A model generated the notes under the pieces. That model was not told the DNA's origin, did no database searches, and was given only the letters and a program-made list of their open reading frames with translations. 64,000 nucleotides of DNA from assembly GCA_010015805.1 (NCBI GenBank), contig ML978133.1, positions 248,001-312,000 of the forward strand. Direction: 5' to 3'. This stretch comes from Rhizodiscina lignyota. Lineage: Eukaryota. Below are positions 6,109 to 55,716 of the stretch, one piece after another (positions within the stretch are counted from its first letter, which is position 1; every line of letters starts with the position of its first letter). The position numbers were made by a program, and so were the translations under genes.

Positions 6109-6907
6109 CTCTCACAAGTTATGAGGGTACGTACGTTGAAACAATTACCGTTCCGGCGACGTTGGATGGGGGAGAGACGTGACGTGCCTTCAATACCAGC
6201 TCTTTAGCCATTCCTCCGCCGAAGCTTTCGGTCGAACAAGCGCAGCACTGGGATAAGCCTGTCACCTTGATGGCATGCTAACAAAGAAGGGGGGAGCATG
6301 AAAATCTTCAACGTTACTAATAGCATTAAGATTTCCCAGAAAAAATTCTCCCTGGTATATCGTACATGTATGCTAGATGCAGCCGAACGTCTACTACGAA
6401 TGTGCTTCAGGGGGAACATGAAGCGAATCCAAGCTGACTAAAAAGCGTGTCAATTATGAGCCCGGCCGCCGTGGGAGCACCCCTAGCCTGGAATTGGTTA
6501 GTCTCCGGTGCCACGAACCTTTGACCAGCCACCGCGATTCCGCAGTCCGTTTCTCTCCTGTTCGACCCACAAGATATCATCCTTACAGTTAGGAGGAGCA
6601 AAGGTTAAATCTCCTTCAAGGGCCAGTGTGAGTTGATATTCTCTGCGGCTATCCTCCATAAAATCACGGAGATGGCGAAGTCGAACGCCCGCTCCGTGCT
6701 GCGATCGGCCACGGCCATCGGTGACTCTGCTCCGTTCCGTGACGGTGACTTTTGACGCCTGTGATGAGTTCGACTTTATGCTCTTAGGTATTTAATCTCG
6801 ATTGTCTTCTATTGAAGCTAGGTCTCTCGATCTATCAAGCTTTCAACTCTCAGCTTTCAACTGTTTCGCAGCGTCCATTGTACCGTTTGATCCCTTCTCT
6901 CCACAAA

Positions 6908-22718: not shown

Positions 22719-24292
22719 ATGGCCGCACCACAGCGAAGCCTCGCTCAAGACCTCTTTGAGGATATGGGCCGTAAGGTTGCTGAGGCAAGCAAATCTAGTT
22801 TTGAAGAAGATGACGAGAACTCTAAGCTCGTGGAAGAGATCGAGTCTCTGTGCATGAACTGCCATGAACAAGTAAGCTATAATTATTTTCTAAGATGAAT
22901 TCGACGGGCGACTGCTAATATATACACTTGTCCTAGGGCACTACGCGCCTCCTCCTGACTCGTATTCCTTTCTTCAGAGAAATCGTCATCATGTCCTTCT
23001 CCTGTCCTCATTGTGGCTTTCAAAACTCCGAAGTCCAGCCCGCAGGGACCATACAAGAGCGCGGGACAAAGTTCACTCTGAAGGTGGAGAGTGCAGATGA
23101 TTTGAACCGGCAGATTATAAAGAGCGATACTTGCACATTCCGGATCGAAGATATCGATCTTGAGATACCACCTGGGAGAGGGCAACTCACGAACGTCGAG
23201 GGTATCCTTACGATGATCGCCACGGATTTACAGAGCAAGCAGGACGAGCGGAAGGAGAAGATACCGGAAGTATGGGCACAGCTTGAAACGGTCATCAAGA
23301 CCGTCCAAGACATGGCTTCCGGCGCGAAGCTGCCATTCACAACCACGCTCGATGACCCGGCCGGTAACTCTTGGATCCAATTCTCCGCAAACGATTCTAC
23401 TACGAAATACTTCAGACACGAATACCCTCGCAGCCCGGCACAAAATGAAGCTTTAGGCCTCGGAGATGGCTCTGCTACAGAAACTGCAGAGACCGGCCCT
23501 AGTGGCGAGGCGCCCGGGACGCAGACGCGCCCAGAGTATCATGCATCACACATGTACCCTGCGATGCCTGCAGAACAAAATGTCAACAATGTGGACGATG
23601 ATGAAGACATTGTTGAAAATCAAGTGTACAGCTTCCCGGCTCAATGTCCAGGATGCACCAAGCCGTGCGCCACCAACATGAAGATGGTGCGGATACCACA
23701 TTTCAAGGAGGTTATCATAATGAGCACTGTTTGCGACCATTGTGGCTATCGGAACAATGAAGTCAAAACAGGGGGTGAAGTCCCCGAACTCGGCCGTCGC
23801 ATCACCCTACGTGTCGAAAGACCAGAGGATCTATCCCGCGATATCTTAAAATCCGAAACATGTGGTCTCTATTGCCCCGAGATCAAGTTGTCCGTCGAAC
23901 CGGGTACGCTTGGAGGCCGGTTCACAACCGTCGAGGGCCTACTCAGGCAGATCCGTGACGACCTGCACAACAACATCTTCTCCGATGACGATGCTGGCGG
24001 AGGAGATAGCATGAACGCTGATGAAAGAGAACGGTGGAACTCGTTCTTTTCCGATGTCGACAGTGCGATCGAGGGGAAGGAGAAGTTCACGCTGGTGCTG
24101 GAGGACCCTTTCGCAGCGAGCTACGTGCAAAGCTACGCGGATGAAGGAGCAGACGAGCAGCTCACAGTTGAAGATTACGAGAGAACCGAACAAGAAGAGG
24201 AGGAGTTGGGCTTGAAGGATATTAAAACCGACCATTACGAGGAAAACAAGAAGGATGCAGGAGAAACAAAGGAAGAGTCCGGCGAGAGGTGA
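22719..24292 (+). CDS. ZPR1: Zinc finger protein ZPR1 (eEF1A chaperone), 2 exons
   Basis: EIESLCMNCHEQ|GTTRLLLTRIPFFREI, SFSCPHCGFQN, second finger CPGC...CDHCGYRNNEVKTGG, GTLGGRFTTVEGLL. Confidence 0.96.
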
Positions 24293-24831: not shown

Positions 24832-26128
24832 ATGCAAATGCCCCCCCTCAAAGCTCACACAGAACAGCTAACCGCGTTCTCAAGTGGTGTGCGAAATGCA
24901 CTTGAATCGCCGCTCCTCCGACTCCCTGCAGAAGTCCGCATGCAGATATGGAAGTACGTGTACAGCGGGCACGTCGTCGACGTCGAGGAGAACCGCAAGC
25001 CGAACACCAGGCGGCTGGTGTTCGCGCACAACATCTGCAACAGCGACCCGCTGTGCACCATCACGAAGCTGTTCCGCGACATTGCCGCTGGCCGGCGCGT
25101 GCGCGTGACGAGCAACGAGAACATCTCGTGCGCGCTGCAGGGCAAGCGAGGCCGGCTGCGCTTCGCGCTCTTCTTCGTGTGCAGGCAGATCTACCGCGAG
25201 GCGAGGCTTCTGCCGTACTCGGAGAATGCGTTCTTCTTCTGGAATGCGCAGGTGATGTACGATTTCATGACGGAAGTGAGACAGAAAGAGCAGGTGGCTG
25301 CGATTGTAAGTTATCTTATATCTTGTACAGCGTATGTCGCCCCGCCTTCAATGCCCAAGGAACTGGACGGATCGAGACTGTTCGCACCGACCGTGAGCTA
25401 TGAGAGAAATATAGAGGCCCGTAGCGACTGTGTAATGTCTCCAACACGAGCGGAGAGGACCTGGGCAAAGCGAACGTACGCAAATTCAAGAGCTCGAGAC
25501 ATCCATCTTAAAAAATTTGAGTGCACATTCCAGCTCCTGTTTATGCACAACAGGATCAGGGATCTCCATAATTTTCAGCAGTCCGTGTAGTGAACCATGA
25601 TGGCCTCAGAGCACAGCGGTTAGCAAAACATGCTCCATCCATCGCACCATCAGGACTCAAGCTGGGTTGGAGATAGGTTGTAGCGCGCTGGCTGCCTGGC
25701 GAACTCTGCTGATTTGTTCTGTGTTCCAGAAAGAGATTGCCGTCGTCGTAGAGGTTGGAAAGATGCTCAGCCTGAGAGACAGCCCGCCGCATTATTGGGA
25801 CCAGAGCAAGGTTGGCGACCTGGTGAAGCTACTGACCAATCTGAGGTGCTTAGATCTGCTGGTGAGGATACCGGTCGAGCACGTCATTCGCGTCAACGAC
25901 CAGCAAGGGAACTGGAAGAGCCATCAGTGGGTATCTGGCGTGCTCAAGCTGAGGGAGGCCGGTCTGAAAGAGGTCCACGTTGTAGGGCATCTGAGTAAAG
26001 ATGCAATGAGGATGAGGGCTGGAGATTTTGCCGAGGGTGAAGAGGCGCTTCGTCGACACTACCAGTTGACCGATGAAGATGTGAAGAGTTACGCAGAAGG
26101 GTTGGAAGAGGCTCTATTGAGTGGGTGA
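24832..26128 (+). CDS. Hypothetical fungal protein with N-terminal F-box-like motif; 2 exons (24832-25305, 25730-26128)
   Basis: SPLLRLPAEVRMQIWKYV and VCRQIYREARLLPYSENAFFF motifs; GTAAGT donor at 25306 and CTGAT...CAG acceptor ending 25729 join QVAAI|KEIAVVV in frame. Confidence 0.65.
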
Positions 26129-37638: not shown

Positions 37639-40153
37639 ATGGTGAGGAACCATGAGGGTGTAGGGACGAGGGAGATGGTGGTGCCGCAATCTATTCCACA
37701 GATCAGGATGAGCATCCGCAATATCATTCATGGGCACCTTGACAAATATAAAGATGTAAAACGGGGAGGGCCGGCGAGGCCTGCCACTTTGATTGTCGTT
37801 GAGTTTCATATCCAACACAACAGCGCGTATCAGCGCGTGAGAAGAGCCGAGATCACCGTATCGTTCGCAACATTGCCGGGGGACGATCCTTCGATCAATC
37901 AGGAAGTATATCGCATTGCTCCTAACGGCGGGTACCTTCTGGTATGTTACCGAAGCAATTCTTTTCTCCCTCATCTACTGGAATCAACATAGTGGCATCA
38001 CCTTAGTGTCTGAAGTCTACAATATTTCCAGTTATGATTAGCTGACAAGTTGTACCAAGCTTCCAGATGAAGACCATCCTGGACAATTCAAGCTGGCGAG
38101 AAAAGATAGTTATGCAGATCATCAAGACGAGATAGCAATGTCGGGCTTTGTGAACTTCTCAGCTCACGCCCAGGTCACTAACAATGACTTGGAGAACGCT
38201 GCCACTTGGCAGATCAACGAAAATAAGAAGACGAAAGTGGGAATCCCTAACCTTATCCAGACTGCGCTTTTGCTTCGACCACCTAGTGATGAAGGAAGAC
38301 TCGAAATGGAGCTGCACACCAAACTCATAACATCTGGATTCTCTTTTGAGCCCGCTGCGAGATTTAACCTCCTTAGTAACGAAACCATAAGCTTCGATCC
38401 GAACCTTCAATTCCCGACCTTAGATGGAGTTAATTCCCAGAACCTTGACAATGTCGATCTAGCGATGTTCTTCAAGGCTGTATTCACTCGTCAAGACTCG
38501 ATCACAGCTACAGGTGACACCGAGCAACAAAGGCAAGGTGCCATCCAAACGGCCCTGGGAGCCATAGCACATAAGGAGGCCAAAAAGCAAAGCCGCTCAC
38601 CCCGACCTCCGAGCGCGAAACTCGATGAAAAGATTCAGCCTGGAGAATACTTTTATGCGGAACTGTGGAGCCGTGACTCCACACGTGCGCCAATTACCAA
38701 CAGAACTGTAGCTGTTTCCGGATCGAAATTTGATCCAGAAATTAAAGCGCTAGACAAGACCGTGCTTGAGAAATACTTCTCTTGGGTGCATGAAGACCCG
38801 CCTCTGCCCTCAACGGTAAGACAGATTCAATTTCATGCTTAAATGCACTGGCAAACGGGAATCCAGCGATTGGCATTTGTTGCTCCCCGAAGGTTCGCAC
38901 ATCTCTTTTAAGTTTTGAAAGTAGCTATTTACAACTTGAGGACACTCCAAACACGAAAACAGCATCCCTTACCCTGATGTCCACTTCTTTTGTTCTAACT
39001 TTGGCTGGCTAGGACCGAGATTCGGCCATGCAACCGGAGCCTAAAATGAAAAATATATGTTCCCTGATGTCAGTTCTCAAATATCTGCCTTTAATGGCCG
39101 GTACTAAACGATAATAGTGGACGTCAAGGTGAAACTGCTGGCTGTCAGAATTTGAACGATTTGAATGCCCTCTTCAGTAAGCAAACATGGCTCTCGCTGA
39201 CGGAATTCTTCCAACTACCAACCGAATTTTCCAGTTTCCGTGGGCATGATAGCGGCATCTGGCTGCGAGCGATCTCTAGTCAAGGCCAAGATTTGGCGTA
39301 TTTCTACCAGACCCCATTTTACCCAGAAAAGTTTTGGTCTCTGGTCCTGTTTATCCGTGGAAACTCAACAAACGGAGCTGCTGTACTGCAATCGGACAGC
39401 AAAATAGACTGCCAGGGTGTTCTGCAAAGAGCGAAGGAATATGGCTCCAGGGGCTCACATCCGCTGATAGTACTCGTATTACTTTTCCAAGATCACGTCT
39501 TGGGAACTGCGGATAAATTCAAAGACGTGTCAACGAAAATCCAGGCTATAGATGCCGATCTTCTGGCCGAACTGAAAGCCGCACAGGGCCACAAGACCAA
39601 ACTCAGGGTGTCCGAGTATGGCACGTTAAGCCATCGAATCTACGAGGCTCGGATGGAACTGGTTGAACTTCAGCGACGACGCGAATTTGAAGCCCAAGTT
39701 GGCAAGACTTTAAAGAATGATGTGAAAGAGGAGACATCTCTCATTACCCGTGTGGACATGTTCACGGGACTCTCCGCCAGCCACGAACTCGGCATCCAGA
39801 ACTTTCCCGATAGAATCGAAAGCCAGCGTACGGTTCTGTATAGCTTAATCGCTCAGCAAGATGCCAGAGTTCAGTTCAAGCTAGCCCGAGAAACTACGAA
39901 AGACTCGAAAGCCATGAAGACGCTTGCAGTAATCACCATTCTACTGCTCCCCGGCACGTTCATGGCTACGTTATTTGCCGTTCCGGATCTGATTACGCTC
40001 AAACCCAGAGCGAAAGTCCAGATATACTGTGGGGTTACTGTACCTGCCACTTTTGTGTTGATCGTGTGCTGGTGGCTGTGGGTGCGAAGAAGTGCGTCGC
40101 ACGTACCGGGCGAAGATGAAGAAGCTACGAGGGAGAAGGCGAAATGGCTGTAA
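37639..40153 (+). CDS. Uncharacterised multi-exon protein with a C-terminal CorA-like two-helix membrane domain (probable exons 37639-37941, 38060-38815, 39013-39068, 39118-40153)
   Basis: In-frame GT-AG junctions found by eye; N-terminal RPATLIVVEF..ITVSF..IAP..W.INEN..GIP.LIQTALLL motif string; C-terminal LYSLIAQQDA..DSKAMKTLAVITILLLPGTFMATLF plus a second TM helix. Confidence 0.6.
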
Positions 40154-40837
40154 TTGGAGCTCTGTATCGAGAGGGCTTTTATCTGGGCCAGGTCTATAGA
40201 GGGTTGCTTCCACTGTTCCACAAGAGCTGATTCTGAATTATAGCTAGGCATATCGTGACTCCAATTGTTTCTCTATAAATTATTAAATTGGTTATGCCAT
40301 TGTTGAACTTGCCCAGAAAAGAAATCGGTCAGCAGATTTGTGTGAGAAATTATATAGATATTCTCGCTTACGTCGATAATTAGCAATTGTTCCGAGAACT
40401 CTTACCACTTCCGCTCTATCTTATATATTCTCGATCTGTGCAAAGTCTTCTGGTGAAAAATTAATCTCTCGATTTTAAGGAATAGCATATATAAAATGGT
40501 GTGGCCGGAAGAGTGTATCTATGACCGAGTAAGTTCGCTTGCTTCTTTTGTGCAGCATTAGCTGTAATCCGTATCAAGGCTACGATGCGTCACACTTAAT
40601 TTTCCTGTTCTGGCACTCAGTACCAAACTGCAGTCCCTTATTCTATACCATAGGTTTAATAGAAGTGGGAAGTCTCCTTGCGTCATGGAATCACGTTATA
40701 CTAGCTCTAGTTCGTGGTAAACCTTAGTGGACAAAACCGCCATCATGGTATCTCCACATAGCATAAATACGATGCAAACTTTACTTCATACTCTGCCAGT
40801 CCTAAAACCTTTCCGATCTATTTTCTGTTCCTCCAAA

Positions 40838-41134
40838 ATGGCGCACGACAAAGTCTGGTACTCCCTCAAAAGCAACGTCAACTACGGAAAGGGCCAGCGC
40901 AAATGGTTGCAATCTATAGTACACCATTTTGCAAACTGTGAGCGCTGATTCTTGATCAATAGTCGCGTGGCGGGCGAAAAGGGTAATGGCCTTATTCGCA
41001 AGTATGGCCTGAATATGTCGCGACAGGCTTTCAGGGAGAAAGCTGAAGACATGGGCTGGAAGAAGGTTCGTGTAGAAGCGTACTTTTTGCTGGAAGAGAT
41101 TAGCCATTAACGACGGATTATACAGTATCGATAA
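40838..41134 (+). CDS. RPS29: 40S ribosomal protein S29 (uS14) homolog lacking 3 of 4 zinc-binding cysteines; exons 40838-40905, 40963-41065, 41126-41134; 59 aa
   Basis: Spliced translation [59 protein letters not shown]; exon lengths 68+103+9=180 nt; GT-AG introns with branch-like GCTGAT and [23 protein letters not shown] and RQ.FREKA are uS14 hallmarks. Confidence 0.92.
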
Positions 41135-41629
41135 ACCATGAGGATGGGATGAAGACCCTTGGATAAGAGTGATCATTGAGGATCTTTGGATAGATTGGGA
41201 TAAAACTGGTGAAGCGCGCGACTCGACTAAGCACGTTACCAGCATATTGACCTGTGACGCCTGCTTCAATCAACTGCAGCTTAATCATCTGAATCCCGCA
41301 CACATTGCGACACTTTGTCTAGTTACGTGCAGATTGCCTTTATCCTCTCACGAGCTTTGTGTTTGAATTTTGTGGCCTAGCATAATGATGATCAAGAGCA
41401 TTGTTAATTTGTTAGCATGACATTCCGAGCCTCCAGCCTTGACCATTAGGGTGAGTATCCACAGCATACCATGATGGCTTATTATGTTTGTGTTTGCAAA
41501 AGAGACAGATATGATTGGCCCCTGCCTTACACCATGTTAAGTAAGAAAATATATAAAGCTCTTTCGCGCTGAAGCTTTAATCCACTGTCGCCAGGTGCTG
41601 ACTTCTTGAGCAGCAAGGACGGAGCGAAA

Positions 41630-43472
41630 ATGGTTGCCACGCGATCCATCACGAAGCAGAACAACGTCCTCAAGGTCAAGTCCCTTGCTGTCACGGAAAA
41701 GTCAAAGAGAGAGCAAGTACAGGTATTGCCCGTTACTTTGCTGTCTGGGTTTCTGGTCAGAAGTCCTAGCATCAATCAATGGAGAATACGCTGACAACGA
41801 AAATTCAGGGAAGCGGAAAGACTACACTTTTGCAGCATATCCTACGCAGCAATCATGGCCTACGTATCGCTATGATTGTCAACGATATCGGCTCGTGGGT
41901 CTAGAGCCGCCCACACATAACAGACTTCCACTAACGCAGATTCCCAAGCATCAACGTCGACGCATCTCTCATTCGCAGTACCCATCACCTCACCAAAACA
42001 GAAGAGAAAGTCGTAGCCCTCCAGAACGGCTGCATCTGCTGCACGCTCCGTGGCGATCTACTTGAGGAATTAATCCGTCTCTCTGAGCTCGCCGAGTTCG
42101 ACTATGTCATAATTGAGAGTAGTGGGATCAGCGAGCCAGAGCAAGTTGCTGAGACCTTTGATGCGAGGTTGGCGGAGCAACTAACTATTGTTGGAGGAGC
42201 TGGGGCCGAGGGGAACGGACTGGATGAGGCGACACTTGCTGCGCTCCAGAGGTTAAAGGATGCTGGTGGGCTGGAGAAGTTTGCGAGACTGGATACGACG
42301 GTTACGGTGGTCGATGCTTTTACCATATTTAACGATTTCGACACCGATGAATTGCTGTCCTCACGGCGGGATGACGTTGTCCCCGAAGATGAGCGGACAA
42401 TTTCTGATCTCATGGTCGACCAGATCGAATTCGCCGATGTTATCGTTCTCAACAAAGTGGACATGGTCAGCAAAGACACCAAATGCCGGATCAAAGACCT
42501 CATCAAAAAGTTGAATCACCGCGCCAAGGTGCTGGAGAGTGAGTTCGGTAGGATTGAGGTTGAGCAGATCGTCAACACGGGATTGTTCAATATGGAGCTT
42601 GCGCAGACAGGTTATGGGTGGTTGCAGGATTTGCATGAGATGATGTTGCGAGAGGTTAACGGGAAGAAGACGGTCACACCGAAGCCTGAGACAGAGGAGT
42701 GAGTTTCATTGATGAGATGTTCGAAGCTGTGGGAAAGCTGACAGTGCGGTGCAGATACAATGTGCGCAACTTTGTGTACACTCGTCATCGACCGTTTCAT
42801 CCTCGTCGATTGTTCGAGTTGGTGTATGATAAATTCATCCTGCGACAGCAGTTCGACGATGATGGAGAACTCGAAGACGAGGATGTTCCCGAGGAATGCG
42901 ATGACGATGAAGACGATGAAGACGATGACGACCCCCTTTTCTCTCCCCCAAGCAACGAAACCATTCTCGCCAACAAAGCCGCCCACCCTCTATTTGCAAA
43001 GCTGTTTCGCTCAAAGGGCGAGATATGGTTAGCGACCCGCCCTGACCGCGCCGGCGAATGGTCGCAAGCTGGTGCCATGCTGACCTTACAAGGTGGGCGG
43101 CCTTGGTTCTGCGTCACTGATCCTGTTGAGTGGCAGACGGGAAACAAGGAAATTGATGAATTGGTGGAACACGATATAAAATCTGGTGGTGTCTGGGGTG
43201 ATCGGAGACAGGAATTGGTCTTTATCGGGGAGAATTTGGACATCAAAGGAGTAGAAAAGGAGCTTGATAAATGTCTCTTGAACGACGAGGAGTGGAGAAT
43301 ATGGCAGGGAATCATGATGGATGGTGAAAGGCCGGATGGTGGGGACCAAAGTGAGAAAGAGGTGAAGTTTGAAAGACTGGCTGAGGCATTTGAAGATGTA
43401 TTTCCGGACTGGATTGATGATAGGCATGATCACGATCATACGGACGGTGATCATCCTGGGCATGTCCACTGA
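41630..43472 (+). CDS. COG0523/CobW-family G3E P-loop GTPase (zinc metallochaperone); exons 41630-41755, 41809-41894, 41949-42698, 42755-43472; 559 aa
   Basis: LPVTLLSGFL|GSGKTTLL Walker A, IVND, metal motif GCICC, IIESSG Walker B, DQIEFAD, NKVD, RPFHPRR, RSKG, GDRRQELVFIG, His/Asp tail HDHDHTDGDHPGHVH. Confidence 0.95.
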
Positions 43473-43552: not shown

Positions 43553-44673
43553 CTATCTAGGCAGCAATTTGTGATTCTGCTTCCCCCACTTCATCTGATT
43601 ATCCACCTGATCAAACTTCTGTGAATTTGCCGCCTTTGCATAGACCCATTCCCTCGCCCGGCGAGCCACCGCCTCGCTCCTCTGTGCCTTCTTCTCAGCC
43701 AAGACGAGCGCCTGCCGCTGTTGCACCGAAACGCCTAGTATGCTCATCTCTTCACGGCGCGCCAGTTGTCGGCCCGACGGCAGCTGCGGTCCGACGTCCA
43801 GTGGCAACGATTCTGCATCCTCGGAACCCGAGGGCAAAGCTTTCATCGTCGATTCCGCGAGACTCCGTCTCCTGGACGCTTTCTTAGGCGCGGGAGCAGC
43901 ATGTCTCGAGCCGATCACCCTACCAGAGGCGAAGCGGATCTCCGTCGCCGACAGGTTAGTCAGGCGTTCCTGCTCCAGCGCGGCGGCGCCGTCCCCGTCG
44001 ACAGATGGCGGGGTCTCCCAGAAGTCGAGCAGTTCCGGTTCCCTGTCCAAGTTCAAGAGACAGTGTCCCTTGTCTCTCATGTGGCTCTGTATGCTCAGGG
44101 TCGAGGGCTTCGTGGCGCCGCAGTAAAGGCATTCGTGCCACGCCCGGACCTCCGTGGCCAGGTAACCCACGAAGCTCTGCATGTCTATCACCATCTCCGG
44201 GTCTGGGATGAACATCCCATGAGCTGTACGCATGTGCTCGAGGTTCGTTGCAAAGCCAGCGTCGTCGCTTGCGAAGCCCCGGCTGCAGAACAGACATTGG
44301 AAGGGCGATGCGCTTTCCTCGCACTCGTTGTCCGAGGCCTCCTCGTCGCTGCTGCTACTGCTGCTTCTGCTGCTGGTAGATGCCTTGCTGATGTCAACCT
44401 TTTTCTTGATCTGTGTGTCGAACGCATCGAGGGGGATCGGCGGTAATGATGCAATGCGCCGCTTGATGTTGTATACGCTGTTCTGATGTCAATTCTCATG
44501 ATCTAGACCATAGTTGTGTCGGTTTCGACGTACTGCCATGGCTCTTTCATGTGTATGCGCTGCTCCTGCCCATTTTGGAAAGAAATGTGGCACGTAGTGC
44601 ACAAGTAGGTTGTTGATGGGAGTGGGAACGGCGATTGCTCAGCATCCAGGTTGGAGGACGTAGCGCTTAGCAT
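43553..44673 (-). CDS. Rei1/Reh1 (ZNF622)-family C2H2 zinc-finger protein, shortened divergent form; 2 exons (intron 44478-44533); 354 aa
   Basis: CTTCHISF..QRIHMKEPWH|VYNIKRRIASLPPI, CLFC..NLEHMRTAHGMFIP, CLYCG..IQSHMRDKGHC, FASGRVIGSR. Confidence 0.85.
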
Positions 44674-50052: not shown

Positions 50053-51854
50053 ATGAAGTTCGACATCTTCGGACGTGGGTTTAGCCTACGCTTGGCCATC
50101 ACGGTGGCCTGCGAGATGGCCTTCATCCTCTTTGGTGTGTCTATAATGCGTCGCATGGTATCACAGAAGTATCTAACTGCTGTCGAAAGGCTACGACCAG
50201 GGTGTGTTCTCTGGGATTGTTGGCAATACCGACTTTCTCAACGTTATGAATCACCCCAGTCCTGGATTACTAGGTATCATCGTCAGCATCTACAATCTCG
50301 GGTGCTTCAGCGGATGTATACTTAACTTCTTCTTTGGCATTTACTTTGGTCGGCGTCTTTGCATGTGGATTGCCATGGCATGGATCATTGTATGTTCCAG
50401 TCTCGCTGTGCAAATGCTTCGCTAATAGTACCAGGTGGGTGCTGCTTTACAAGCTTCGGCGTTCTCGGTGCCACACCTGATGGTCGCTCGATTCGTGACC
50501 GGCATCGGAACAGGCATCGAGACGTCCACTGTGCCAATGTACCAGGCCGAGCTTTGCAAAGCCCATCAACGAGGCCGCCTTGTTTGTTCAGAAGCCCTCT
50601 TTGTGGGTGTCGGAATCGTCATCGCATATTGGTTTGATTACGGGTTTGTCGCTATGCGCCTGGAGAGAGCTTCTGTAATATTAATCTGTACCAGGCTGCA
50701 TTTCAACGATAATTCAATCGCATGGCGAGTGCCTATAGCTTGCCAAGTTGTGTTCTGCTTCGTAAGTACCAATGGTACGGCTTGCCGACGACAGTTGCTG
50801 ATTTTCCAGGTTGTCATCGTTCTCGTATTCGGTCTCCCAGAATCACCTCGATATTTGTACGTGAAGGGCAAAAATGAAGAGGCCCTCAAAGTCCTTTGTG
50901 ACGTGTACGACCATGATCCAAATCACCCGGATACCGTCAAGGAGCAGAATGACATCCTTGAAGCCATTGCTCTGGAGTCGCAACATACCGCTACCTGGTG
51001 GGATATCTTCAAACAGGACGAAGTTCAGACCGGAAAGCGCGTTGCCCTTGCATACGGCATGCAGTTTATGAATCAAATGGGAGGCATCAACCTGGTCGTC
51101 TACTTCGTTCCAACCGTCTTGCAAGAGAACGTGGGTCTAACGCGGAACTTATCCCTACTTCTCGGCGGTGTTATCCAGTGCATGTTCGTCATCGGTTCCT
51201 TTGTGCCGTCTCTACTCGTCGACAAGGTTGGCCGCCGGTGGCCCATGATGATTGGTTCTGCTGGTTTGGGCATCTCCATGATGCTCATATCTATCCTGCT
51301 AAGCTTCAAAGGAAGTTCCAACGAGAAATCCACGTCCGCCGCCAGCGTAGCATTCTTTTTCACATATATGCTGATATTCGGTGCGTCGGTTAACTGTATA
51401 CCCTGGGTTTACGTCCCGGAGATTCTCCCGCTCAAGGCTAGAGCCAAAGGCACTGCTGTCGGCATTTCATCGAACTGGCTTTGGGTTAGTACTCAGTCCC
51501 ATCATGTCTCCACTTACGTACCTGACAATTCCGCAGAACTTCTTCGTCGTCATGATTACTCCTGTGATCATCACAAACTTGCAGTATAAAGCTTACATAA
51601 TATTCGTCTGTACTAACTTCGCTTTCATTCCACTGATTTACTTCTGCTACCCGGAGACAATGAACCTCACCCTCGAAGAGATCGATTACTTGTACACGAA
51701 GCCTGGAGTATCCGCGCGTAAAGTTGCGGACGAGTTACGGAAAAGCCATAAACAGCATGGAGCGAGCCCCGAGGAGGCAATGATAGAGCAGGAAGAAAGT
51801 GGGAAGAGTACTCCGCCATTTGACGTTCATGAAATAAACCACGAGAAACTGTAA
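50053..51854 (+). CDS. Sugar porter family MFS transporter, multi-exon
   Basis: LFG|YDQGVFSG, FGRR, RFVTGIGTG, VPMYQAE, LPESPRYL, QFMNQMGGIN, VDKVGRR, PWVYVPEILPLKARAKG, YPETMNLTLEEID. Confidence 0.94.
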
Positions 51855-54581: not shown

Positions 54582-55716
54582 TCAAGCTTCCTTTCCAGGA
54601 GAAGGAGGCTTCGAGTTCGCCGCAGAGTCGGATTGCGAGGAGTACGCCCTCAGCATGGTCTGGTGAGCCAGTCAGCGAAATCATGTCCTATGAATCAGGA
54701 GGTTCAACGTGTGGAAGTACTTACAGCAGCGCCCTTTGGCTCAACGAAAAGAGCCTCTGCTTCCACGAGCCTCACGGGGTCCTTGCCCTTCTTCTCCCCA
54801 TTCAACCCCTCGACTTCCCACTCTTCAGGAGCCGGCAGCGTCTCTATCCAGCCCTTGACCCAGGCCTTGCGGCCCTCGACCTTCTGCGTCTCTGCTCGCA
54901 GGACCACATACTGCTCAGCCCTACAAGGTACCCGGTAGTCTATCTTGAGACTCGCCGTGACTCCGACCTTGTTCGGCAGCGCGGGGAAGCAGCAGCGTGC
55001 CAGGCCCTCGTCCAGCAGTGTAGCTAGCAAACCACCGTGTATGATGCCTGGATGCCCGCAAAGCGCTGATCCCAGATACTGTATGGTGACATACTCGCTT
55101 CCATCGCGAGTGGTGAATGCCAGCGGTGGAACCTCGACCTTCCTCTCGCCAAGTAGCGTGCCGCCAGTGAGGTTGAGGGGTCGTAAAGCTGGCGGGATCT
55201 TCAAATGTGGTCTCGAAGGAAGGAATTTCGGGTTATCGTAGAGGGATTGTGTGAGAGGATGAGATTGTATGTACGCTTCCGCCTCTGCGGCAAAGGACTC
55301 TGGCTCTGGATCGAAGAGCAACAGTGTCTCCTCGTCACTGGGCACCTTGACAATGCCATTGGCGTTGATGGAGACTTGGCCGGAGGCTGCTACGGCCATG
55401 ACGAGACCGAGCGTGGAGTAGAAGATTGCGGCACCAACCCAACGAAGAAGTCGAAATCGCGGAGGCGGAGGAGGAAGAGGAAGTGCGAAATGCTGAGGAC
55501 CTTATATGCCTAGTAATTAGTAAGAGGAGATGTCCGAGGCTCGGGCGAGGTACCTGAAGCTGTGCTCTGCCGCCGAACCTGGGGCGCGTTTATGTGCACA
55601 TTTCTACGATACTGGAAGCTCTTCGGACTCAAGATAAGCGGTGAGGTCGTGGACAAGCGGGGGCCTGCTCGGAAGTGCGAATAAATTGATCGAGTGGCGT
55701 AGGAAGGAGTAGTCAT
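54582..55716 (-). CDS. Mitochondrial PaaI-type hotdog thioesterase (Fmp10/UPF0644-like), 3 exons
   Basis: Arg/Ser-rich presequence, TM helix, YLGSALCGHPGIIHGGLLATLLDEGLARCCFPALPNKVGVTASLKIDYR, EGRKAWV, EAEALFVEPK. Confidence 0.85.

Follow-up and report, generated by a model that had tools for sequence, protein, structure and literature searches.

A conserved, probable RPS29 paralog lacking three zinc ligands and preceded by a candidate zinc-response element lies next to a ZigA-like COG0523 gene in Rhizodiscina lignyota

The window analysed here is a 64,000-nt stretch of Rhizodiscina lignyota contig ML978133.1, in which positions 40838-41134 encode a 59 aa cytosolic uS14/RPS29 protein without three of the four zinc ligands. 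The gene, the promoter elements associated with it and the adjacent COG0523 GTPase gene are listed in Table 1. Joined at their coordinates, the three exons form a frame of 180 nt (59 codons and TAA) that is free of stops and frameshifts, as originally predicted, and reproduces the residues announced for the zinc site: Cys23 is kept, and Ala26, Ser42 and Ala45 replace the other ligands of the canonical CxxC...CxxC. The four-Cys zinc knuckle is absent from the protein, and the single ligand left is Cys23. Both introns start with GT and end with AG, and exon 1 read through unspliced runs into a stop at 40946-40948. Alignment with canonical fungal RPS29 also recovered the small insertions mentioned in the original prediction, as two extra residues before YGKG and one after the second ligand position. 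An antisense ORF overlapping the gene (40802-41269, minus strand) has no Pfam match.

Table 1. Coordinates of the features around the Cys-less RPS29 gene (positions in the window; L001 and L002 are metagenome loci described in the text)
Feature	Position	Strand	Remarks
Degenerate inverted partner of the element	40718..40733	-	ACCTTA at 40721-40726, against ACCTTG then ATGG in relatives; read from aligned promoters
ZafA ZR-like element	40738..40753	+	ATCATGGT at 40742-40749, 96 bp upstream of the Cys-less RPS29 ATG
TATA-like box CATAAATA	40762..40769	+	Within a block conserved with L001 and L002
Exon 1	40838..40905	+	Starts with the ATG; its last two bases, TG, open the split codon of the retained Cys23
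Intron 1	40906..40962	+	57 nt, phase 2; donor GTTGCA, branch-like CTGAT, acceptor TAG
Exon 2	40963..41065	+	uS14 core; Ala, Ser, Ala at zinc-ligand positions 2, 3, 4
Intron 2	41066..41125	+	60 nt, phase 0, GTTCGT...CAG
Exon 3	41126..41134	+	Tyr-Arg-stop
Second element copy	41464..41479	-	Core 41468-41475, about 160 bp upstream of the COG0523 ATG
COG0523 GTPase gene, ZigA-like, with introns	41630..43472	+	Directly downstream of Cys-less RPS29, same strand

Exon 2 alone scores 26.6 bits against the Pfam family PF00253 (Ribosomal_S14), just below the cut-off of 27. The nearest ortholog of full length is P0005, a 59 aa protein that bears the name of Verruconis gallopava, and it reaches 35.1 bits; most of the matches found by a protein search with exon 2 carry a precomputed PF00253 assignment. 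When P0005 was compared with the PDB, the best matches were cytosolic 40S uS14 chains (E = 1.7e-16). The window protein also fits the eukaryotic short form of uS14, with 59 residues against about 56 and YR at the C terminus, in agreement with the cytosolic eukaryotic type claimed for it at the outset. An AlphaFold2 model of P0005 gave best Foldseek matches to uS14 chains (TM 0.58-0.67); with a mean pLDDT of 60.4 the model is too weak to tell what substitutes for the zinc site. Besides, the best match to the window product in the protein collection is only 82% identical, and the product of the neighbouring COG0523 gene has a 100% identical annotated protein, so that the small gene seems to have been missed in the public gene predictions of the organism.

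The translated ORFs of the neighbouring gene contain the Walker A motif GSGKT and the metal motif GCICC, together with cobW (4e-31) and CobW_C (1e-17) domains. The piece that was searched is 100% identical to P0426 (559 aa, NCBI, Rhizodiscina lignyota) and 93% identical to a Patellaria atrata protein. Compared with NCBIfam, P0426 scores 396 bits with ZigA, which is below the equivalog cut-off of 600, 135 bits with MRF and 129 bits with CobW. Elsewhere in the window, a ZPR1-type zinc-finger gene is found at 22937-24289 on the plus strand (ZPR1 jelly-roll 7e-82, ZPR1 zinc ribbon 8e-49). A zf-C2H2_2 gene (2e-22) at 43553-44485 on the minus strand is convergent with the COG0523 gene; its domain is typical of cytoplasmic pre-60S maturation factors.

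Metagenome contigs were scanned and 80 loci were retrieved, of which 77 fit the motif pattern; the three that do not (L038, L040 and L046) are excluded from the counts. The 77 loci comprise 42 fungal loci with the same Cys-less signature, 27 animal-like canonical ones and 8 of a protist type. Exon 1 is intact and ends in TG|GT in all 42 fungal loci as well as in the window (43/43), which means that the retained Cys codon is split by intron 1 in every case. Close relatives of the window locus are found in L001-L003, and in the alignment of these loci with the window the exon changes are mostly synonymous and the introns vary by indels. At intron 1, aligned with L001 and L002, the donor position is conserved and the branch/acceptor block is identical, with an interior that has diverged and carries indels. 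The three-exon model applied to L001 and L002 yields intact 59 aa products, with intron lengths in the window, L001 and L002 of 57, 58 and 62 nt for intron 1 and 60, 58 and 56 nt for intron 2. The last exon reads TAC CGA TAA in L001 and TAT CGA TGA in L002, and keeps Tyr-Arg-stop. The pairing of an RPS29-like gene with a COG0523 gene was seen only in L001 (where it is partial), L002 and L003; tblastn gave no COG0523 match in the other fungal loci, many of which have short flanks.

Over the full CDS, dN/dS is 0.046, 0.15 and 0.093 for the three pairs among the window, L001 and L002. Within a gapless core of 26 codons, the window and L001 differ by a dN of 0 and a dS of 0.89, and across 23 loci the median dN/dS of this core is 0.10 (180 pairs with finite dS), with synonymous sites near saturation. 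The original prediction had argued for selection rather than decay and had named a dN/dS near 1 as an outcome that would refute it; the full-CDS values of 0.046-0.15 against two close relatives and the core median of 0.10 agree with the former. The Cys-less RPS29 gene is evidently under purifying selection and not decaying, because dN/dS is 0.05-0.15, the frames are intact and the exon changes are mostly synonymous. A decaying or non-ribosomal relic, either a pseudogene or a gene that acts outside the ribosome, might be suspected from the loss of three zinc ligands, from the weak donor of intron 1 and from the apparent lack of an identical predicted protein (82% for the best match); it is made highly improbable by these low dN/dS values, reached where synonymous change is near saturation, by intact frames in 43 of 43 loci, and by the conservation of the splice signals, the final exon and the promoter.

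A protein search with the exon-2 frame returned 121 matches, and the best 120 of these were examined. The third and fourth Cys are absent in 120/120, with MSRQA in 118, VSRQA in one and MSRQT in one. Apart from one Exophiala and a single record assigned to the plant Corymbia, the named organisms among these best 120 of 121 matches are Dothideomycetes, and they include no Aspergillus. Canonical RPS29 was followed with the Dothideomycete protein P0130 as the query, for which the best 120 of 788 matches were used and further species names were taken from three cluster look-ups. A residue-by-residue check established that at least 17 named Dothideomycete species carry both a CRVC...CRQC RPS29 and the Cys-less form. 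These include Parastagonospora nodorum, Paraphaeosphaeria sporulosa, P. minitans, Pyrenophora tritici-repentis, Bipolaris maydis, B. sorokiniana, Pleomassaria siparia, Plenodomus lingam, Zopfia rhizophila, Hortaea werneckii, Salinomyces thailandicus, Zymoseptoria brevis, Epicoccum nigrum, Alternaria alternata, A. gaisen and A. tenuissima, as well as Venturia inaequalis, whose variant retains the third Cys. As judged from these sequences, the Cys-less form is an old and conserved Dothideomycete paralog clade that stands alongside canonical four-Cys RPS29 in relatives of the window species, and we are highly confident that it is a functional one. The idea of a paralog, as first put forward, is upheld in these relatives by the at least 17 named species that have both copies.

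The coexistence of the two forms bears on another explanation, in which the Cys-less gene would be the only RPS29 in the lineage of the window and would represent a lineage-wide replacement, as in fission yeast. No canonical RPS29 of Verruconis, Rhizodiscina or Patellaria, the nearest genera named, is among the matches listed (best 120 of 788, plus the cluster names), an absence that says little, since these are the best 120 of 788 matches only; the subclade of the window is divergent as well, with its extra residues and its degenerate promoter core. With both forms present in all of the at least 17 species named in both lists, we regard such a replacement as quite unlikely.

Cys-poor uS14 proteins are also found elsewhere in eukaryotes. 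The two best PDB matches to P0005 are Cys-poor uS14 chains of 56 residues in which the first Cys alone is kept. One of these chain sequences is found in 3j80, 3j81, 6fyx and other entries, and the 40S subunits of 6fyx are those of Kluyveromyces lactis, as stated in the part of the source paper available to us (PMC6298780). The other is present in 9axt, an entry titled "Non-translating S. pombe ribosome". The original prediction had taken the four Cys to be near-invariant in eukaryotic uS14, which does not hold: the S. pombe (9axt) and K. lactis (6fyx) chains keep the first Cys only, and more Cys-poor forms occur in a diatom and in Starmerella, Smittium and Jaminaea. Since the S. pombe and K. 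lactis ribosomes contain chains with the first Cys alone, a Cys-less uS14 is compatible with the 40S subunit and can sit in a working one. The missing ligands and the presence of Cys-less uS14 in solved yeast ribosomes suggest to us that the window protein would fold and work in the absence of zinc. In S. pombe and K. lactis, the Cys-less uS14 is the ordinary protein, and we know of no canonical uS14 partner in either species, which would make these cases a plain replacement. Such ordinary use means that loss of the zinc finger alone does not imply conditional use.

An exhaustive profile-free search with P0037 returned 740 relatives, 135 of which were newly listed and were examined. The canonical third and fourth Cys are present in 100 of the 135, and the remainder include further Cys-poor types, in clusters named for Thalassiosira oceanica, Starmerella bacillaris ("S29B"), Smittium simulii, Jaminaea rosea and Venturia. 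From one to three of the four Cys are lost, in varied combinations, in P0257 (Starmerella bacillaris 'S29B'), P0219 (Smittium), P0262 (Jaminaea) and P0122 (Venturia), and these proteins look like stages in a gradual loss of the zinc site in several lineages of fungi. A separate Cys-poor type reads CRVTG...MKRQ followed by V, A, T, C or E, and is represented by the loci L017, L030-L032, L035, L041, L076 and L079 and by the proteins P0139, P0149, P0170, P0173 and P0184, one protein of this type being named for the diatom Thalassiosira oceanica. In the metagenome loci this type is intronless across the region that is split in fungi, and it has in common with the window protein the MGW motif and the additional residues behind the second ligand position. 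In trees built from 58 columns, all Cys-poor forms cluster (support 96/88); with 46 columns, from which the ligand and insertion columns had been removed, nothing was resolved, and monophyly of the fungal Cys-less group, with a p-AU of 0.24, is neither rejected nor shown. Altogether, the zinc knuckle of uS14 appears to have been lost in eukaryotes more often than was assumed in the original prediction.

The promoters were compared with the zinc-response (ZR) motif of Aspergillus fumigatus ZafA, given in the consulted part of its description as the 15-bp DYYVYCARGGTVYYY with the core CARGGT (PMC6070888). The 43 promoters fall into 23 groups by shared 12-mers, and with the groups of L010 and L068 dropped, as these have less than 300 bp upstream, 21 independent promoters are left. 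CARGGT is present within 600 bp upstream in 16 of the 21. It has 23 matches in 11.9 kb, where shuffled sequence gave 10.7 +/- 3.1 on average and reached 23 in 1 of 500 shuffles, and its background density in the rest of the same loci is 0.9 per kb. No CARGGT was found within 600 bp upstream in L001, L002, L004 or L033. As read from the promoters themselves, a longer element is shared, approximately GCCATCA(A/C/T)GGTACT, which often occurs as an inverted pair.

The pattern ATCANGGT was picked post hoc, after inspection of the promoters, and is present in 20/21 independent promoters, where its distance upstream of the ATG is 96-246 bp in every case. The promoters have 2.18 sites per kb, compared to 0.16 per kb for the remaining sequence of the loci and 0.06 per kb for non-fungal loci, and 26 sites were observed against a maximum of 7 in 1000 shuffles. 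Around the proximal sites, 7.6 of 9 flanking positions agree with the ZafA consensus, compared to 5.4 of 9 around background sites. The variable core base in the 31 proximal sites is A or G in 19, C in 9 (giving CACGGT) and T in 3. Given CACGGT in 9 of 31 proximal sites, the factor that binds there need not be ZafA.

In the window, the element upstream of the Cys-less gene agrees with 14 of the 15 positions of the ZR consensus, and the sole mismatch lies in the core, which is CATGGT and not CARGGT. The second copy, in front of the COG0523 gene, reads CATGGT as well, and the two elements have a 13-mer in common. Neither the CARGGT core (40154-40837 and 41135-41629) nor the yeast ZRE was found in the two promoters of the window. 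The position of the element in the COG0523 promoter is conserved in L001, L002 and L003, and L002 and L003 have a perfect CAAGGT, on the opposite strand, at this same site, so that CATGGT and CAAGGT may well be two versions of the same element. There are only 10 sites of ATCANGGT in the 64-kb window, and two of them precede the RPS29-like and COG0523 genes.

Other copies of the extended element are found in the window at 6264, near a Zn2Cys6 regulator and a DJ-1 gene, at 25594, near a DUF7730 gene, and at 50098, within a sugar transporter gene or close to it. The 15-bp ZafA consensus is matched perfectly at 37732 (minus strand), 39408 (plus strand) and 55340 (minus strand), in or near genes without an evident link to zinc. 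The site at 37732 lies about 300 bp upstream of an unassigned gene at 38042-40153 and the one at 55340 inside a thioesterase-like ORF; the 15-mers at these two positions are nearly identical. A CACGTG box is found beside the zinc-response-like element, about 100-260 bp upstream of the ATG, in L001, L002, L005 and L007-L009, and the window has degenerate versions of it only.

We propose that the Cys-less RPS29 is a zinc-sparing paralog induced at low zinc by a ZafA-type activator, a reading to which we assign a probability of roughly 0.55. At low zinc, the element conserved about 100-250 bp ahead of the ATG would be bound by a ZafA/Zap1-type activator, and both the Cys-less uS14 gene and the adjacent gene for a ZigA-like COG0523 zinc chaperone would thereby be switched on. 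New 40S subunits would then take up the Cys-less uS14 instead of the zinc-binding one, and each would hold one zinc ion fewer. Its competitor is a constitutive or otherwise specialised paralog, for instance one that resists thiol oxidation or that belongs to a particular growth stage, which would be free of zinc regulation and whose element would serve another transcription factor. The many sites that read CACGGT or CATGGT, which is not the ZafA core, the CACGTG box in several promoters of the clade and the modelling of Cys-less uS14 in ordinary S. pombe and K. lactis ribosomes would all suit such a paralog, as would the link between oxidation of CxxC ribosomal proteins and zinc release described in the accessible part of PMC13090322. 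It accounts poorly for an element whose core and flanks alike fit the ZafA consensus much more closely than background sites, and for the same element upstream of the ZigA-like zinc chaperone gene; we hold it to be unlikely, though the least so of the alternatives considered. Regulation of the Cys-less gene by zinc is, from its promoter sequence, somewhat favoured.

Bacteria under zinc starvation exchange zinc-binding ribosomal proteins for zinc-free paralogs. The bacterial C-minus paralogs (S14, L31, L33 and L36, with Zur) resemble the present case in that a Cys-losing copy coexists with a Cys-bearing copy, here in the relatives of the window species; they differ from it in that the protein described here is of the eukaryotic cytosolic type, its gene has spliceosomal introns and regulation is proposed to run through a ZafA/Zap1-type activator and not through the repressor Zur. 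In mycobacteria, S14 belongs to the alternative ribosomal protein operon. There, a zinc-independent S14 is found with the COG0523 GTPase MRF, which is also the second-best NCBIfam match of the window neighbour; however, this neighbour is much closer to ZigA (396 bits) than to MRF (135), and the window has no operon but two separate genes, each with its own copy of the element. Zur regulons have been linked to COG0523 genes (PMC2770081), and S14 of B. subtilis is discussed in PMC13090322, as far as the available parts of these papers go.

Among eukaryotes, the uS14 of S. pombe and K. lactis is likewise cytosolic and keeps the first Cys alone, whereas the Dothideomycete form is a second gene beside the canonical one, with a promoter element of its own and extra residues. 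The microsporidian Encephalitozoon cuniculi has zinc-coordinating and zinc-free genes for the same cytosolic ribosomal proteins, which are not named in the consulted part of the paper; zinc-binding isoforms were seen in its structure, and regulation is not described in that part (PMC8807834). The ZafA regulon of A. fumigatus offers a likeness on the side of regulation, as its ZR motif resembles the window element and the COG0523 gene mchC is a direct target (PMC6070888, PMC12584730). According to the available portion of the latter paper, mchC is one of three COG0523 genes of this fungus, stands nearest among them to bacterial ZigA and ZagA, and is up about 2600-fold on zinc lack, directly via ZafA (PMC12584730). 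Unlike what we propose here, no ribosomal protein gene is named among the ZafA targets in the accessible text of these papers, supplementary tables aside. A 2026 paper lists RPS29 as a zinc-binding protein in six model organisms, and the part of it available to us mentions only the bacterial S14 pair (PMC13090322). Our literature search, supplementary tables aside, found no description of the Cys-less RPS29 clade or of its promoter element, and for zinc-free ribosomal paralogs of eukaryotes it returned only the passing note on microsporidia, in a source available in part (PMC8807834). We therefore consider that bacteria already show the logic of the exchange, and that what is new would be the type of protein, the regulator that we propose and the setting in fungi.

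Ribosomes contain a large share of the cellular zinc. It is conceivable, and we put this forward tentatively as a little short of an even chance, that Dothideomycetes remodel their cytosolic ribosomes at low zinc through a ZafA/Zap1-type switch of Cys-less uS14, accompanied at the locus described here by the ZigA-like neighbour; this would be a eukaryotic counterpart of the Zur-controlled exchange, with a different regulator. The assumption, commonly made, that the zinc knuckle of uS14 is fixed in eukaryotes is corrected by the proteins described above. With a pair of zinc-binding and zinc-free uS14 proteins, a candidate zinc-response element and a linked chaperone gene, the question becomes testable in culturable fungi. 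If the proposal is true, the Cys-poor uS14 proteins of the diatom and other marine protists, and those of Starmerella, Smittium and Jaminaea, would point to zinc-sparing uS14 as a recurrent or ancient strategy of eukaryotes.
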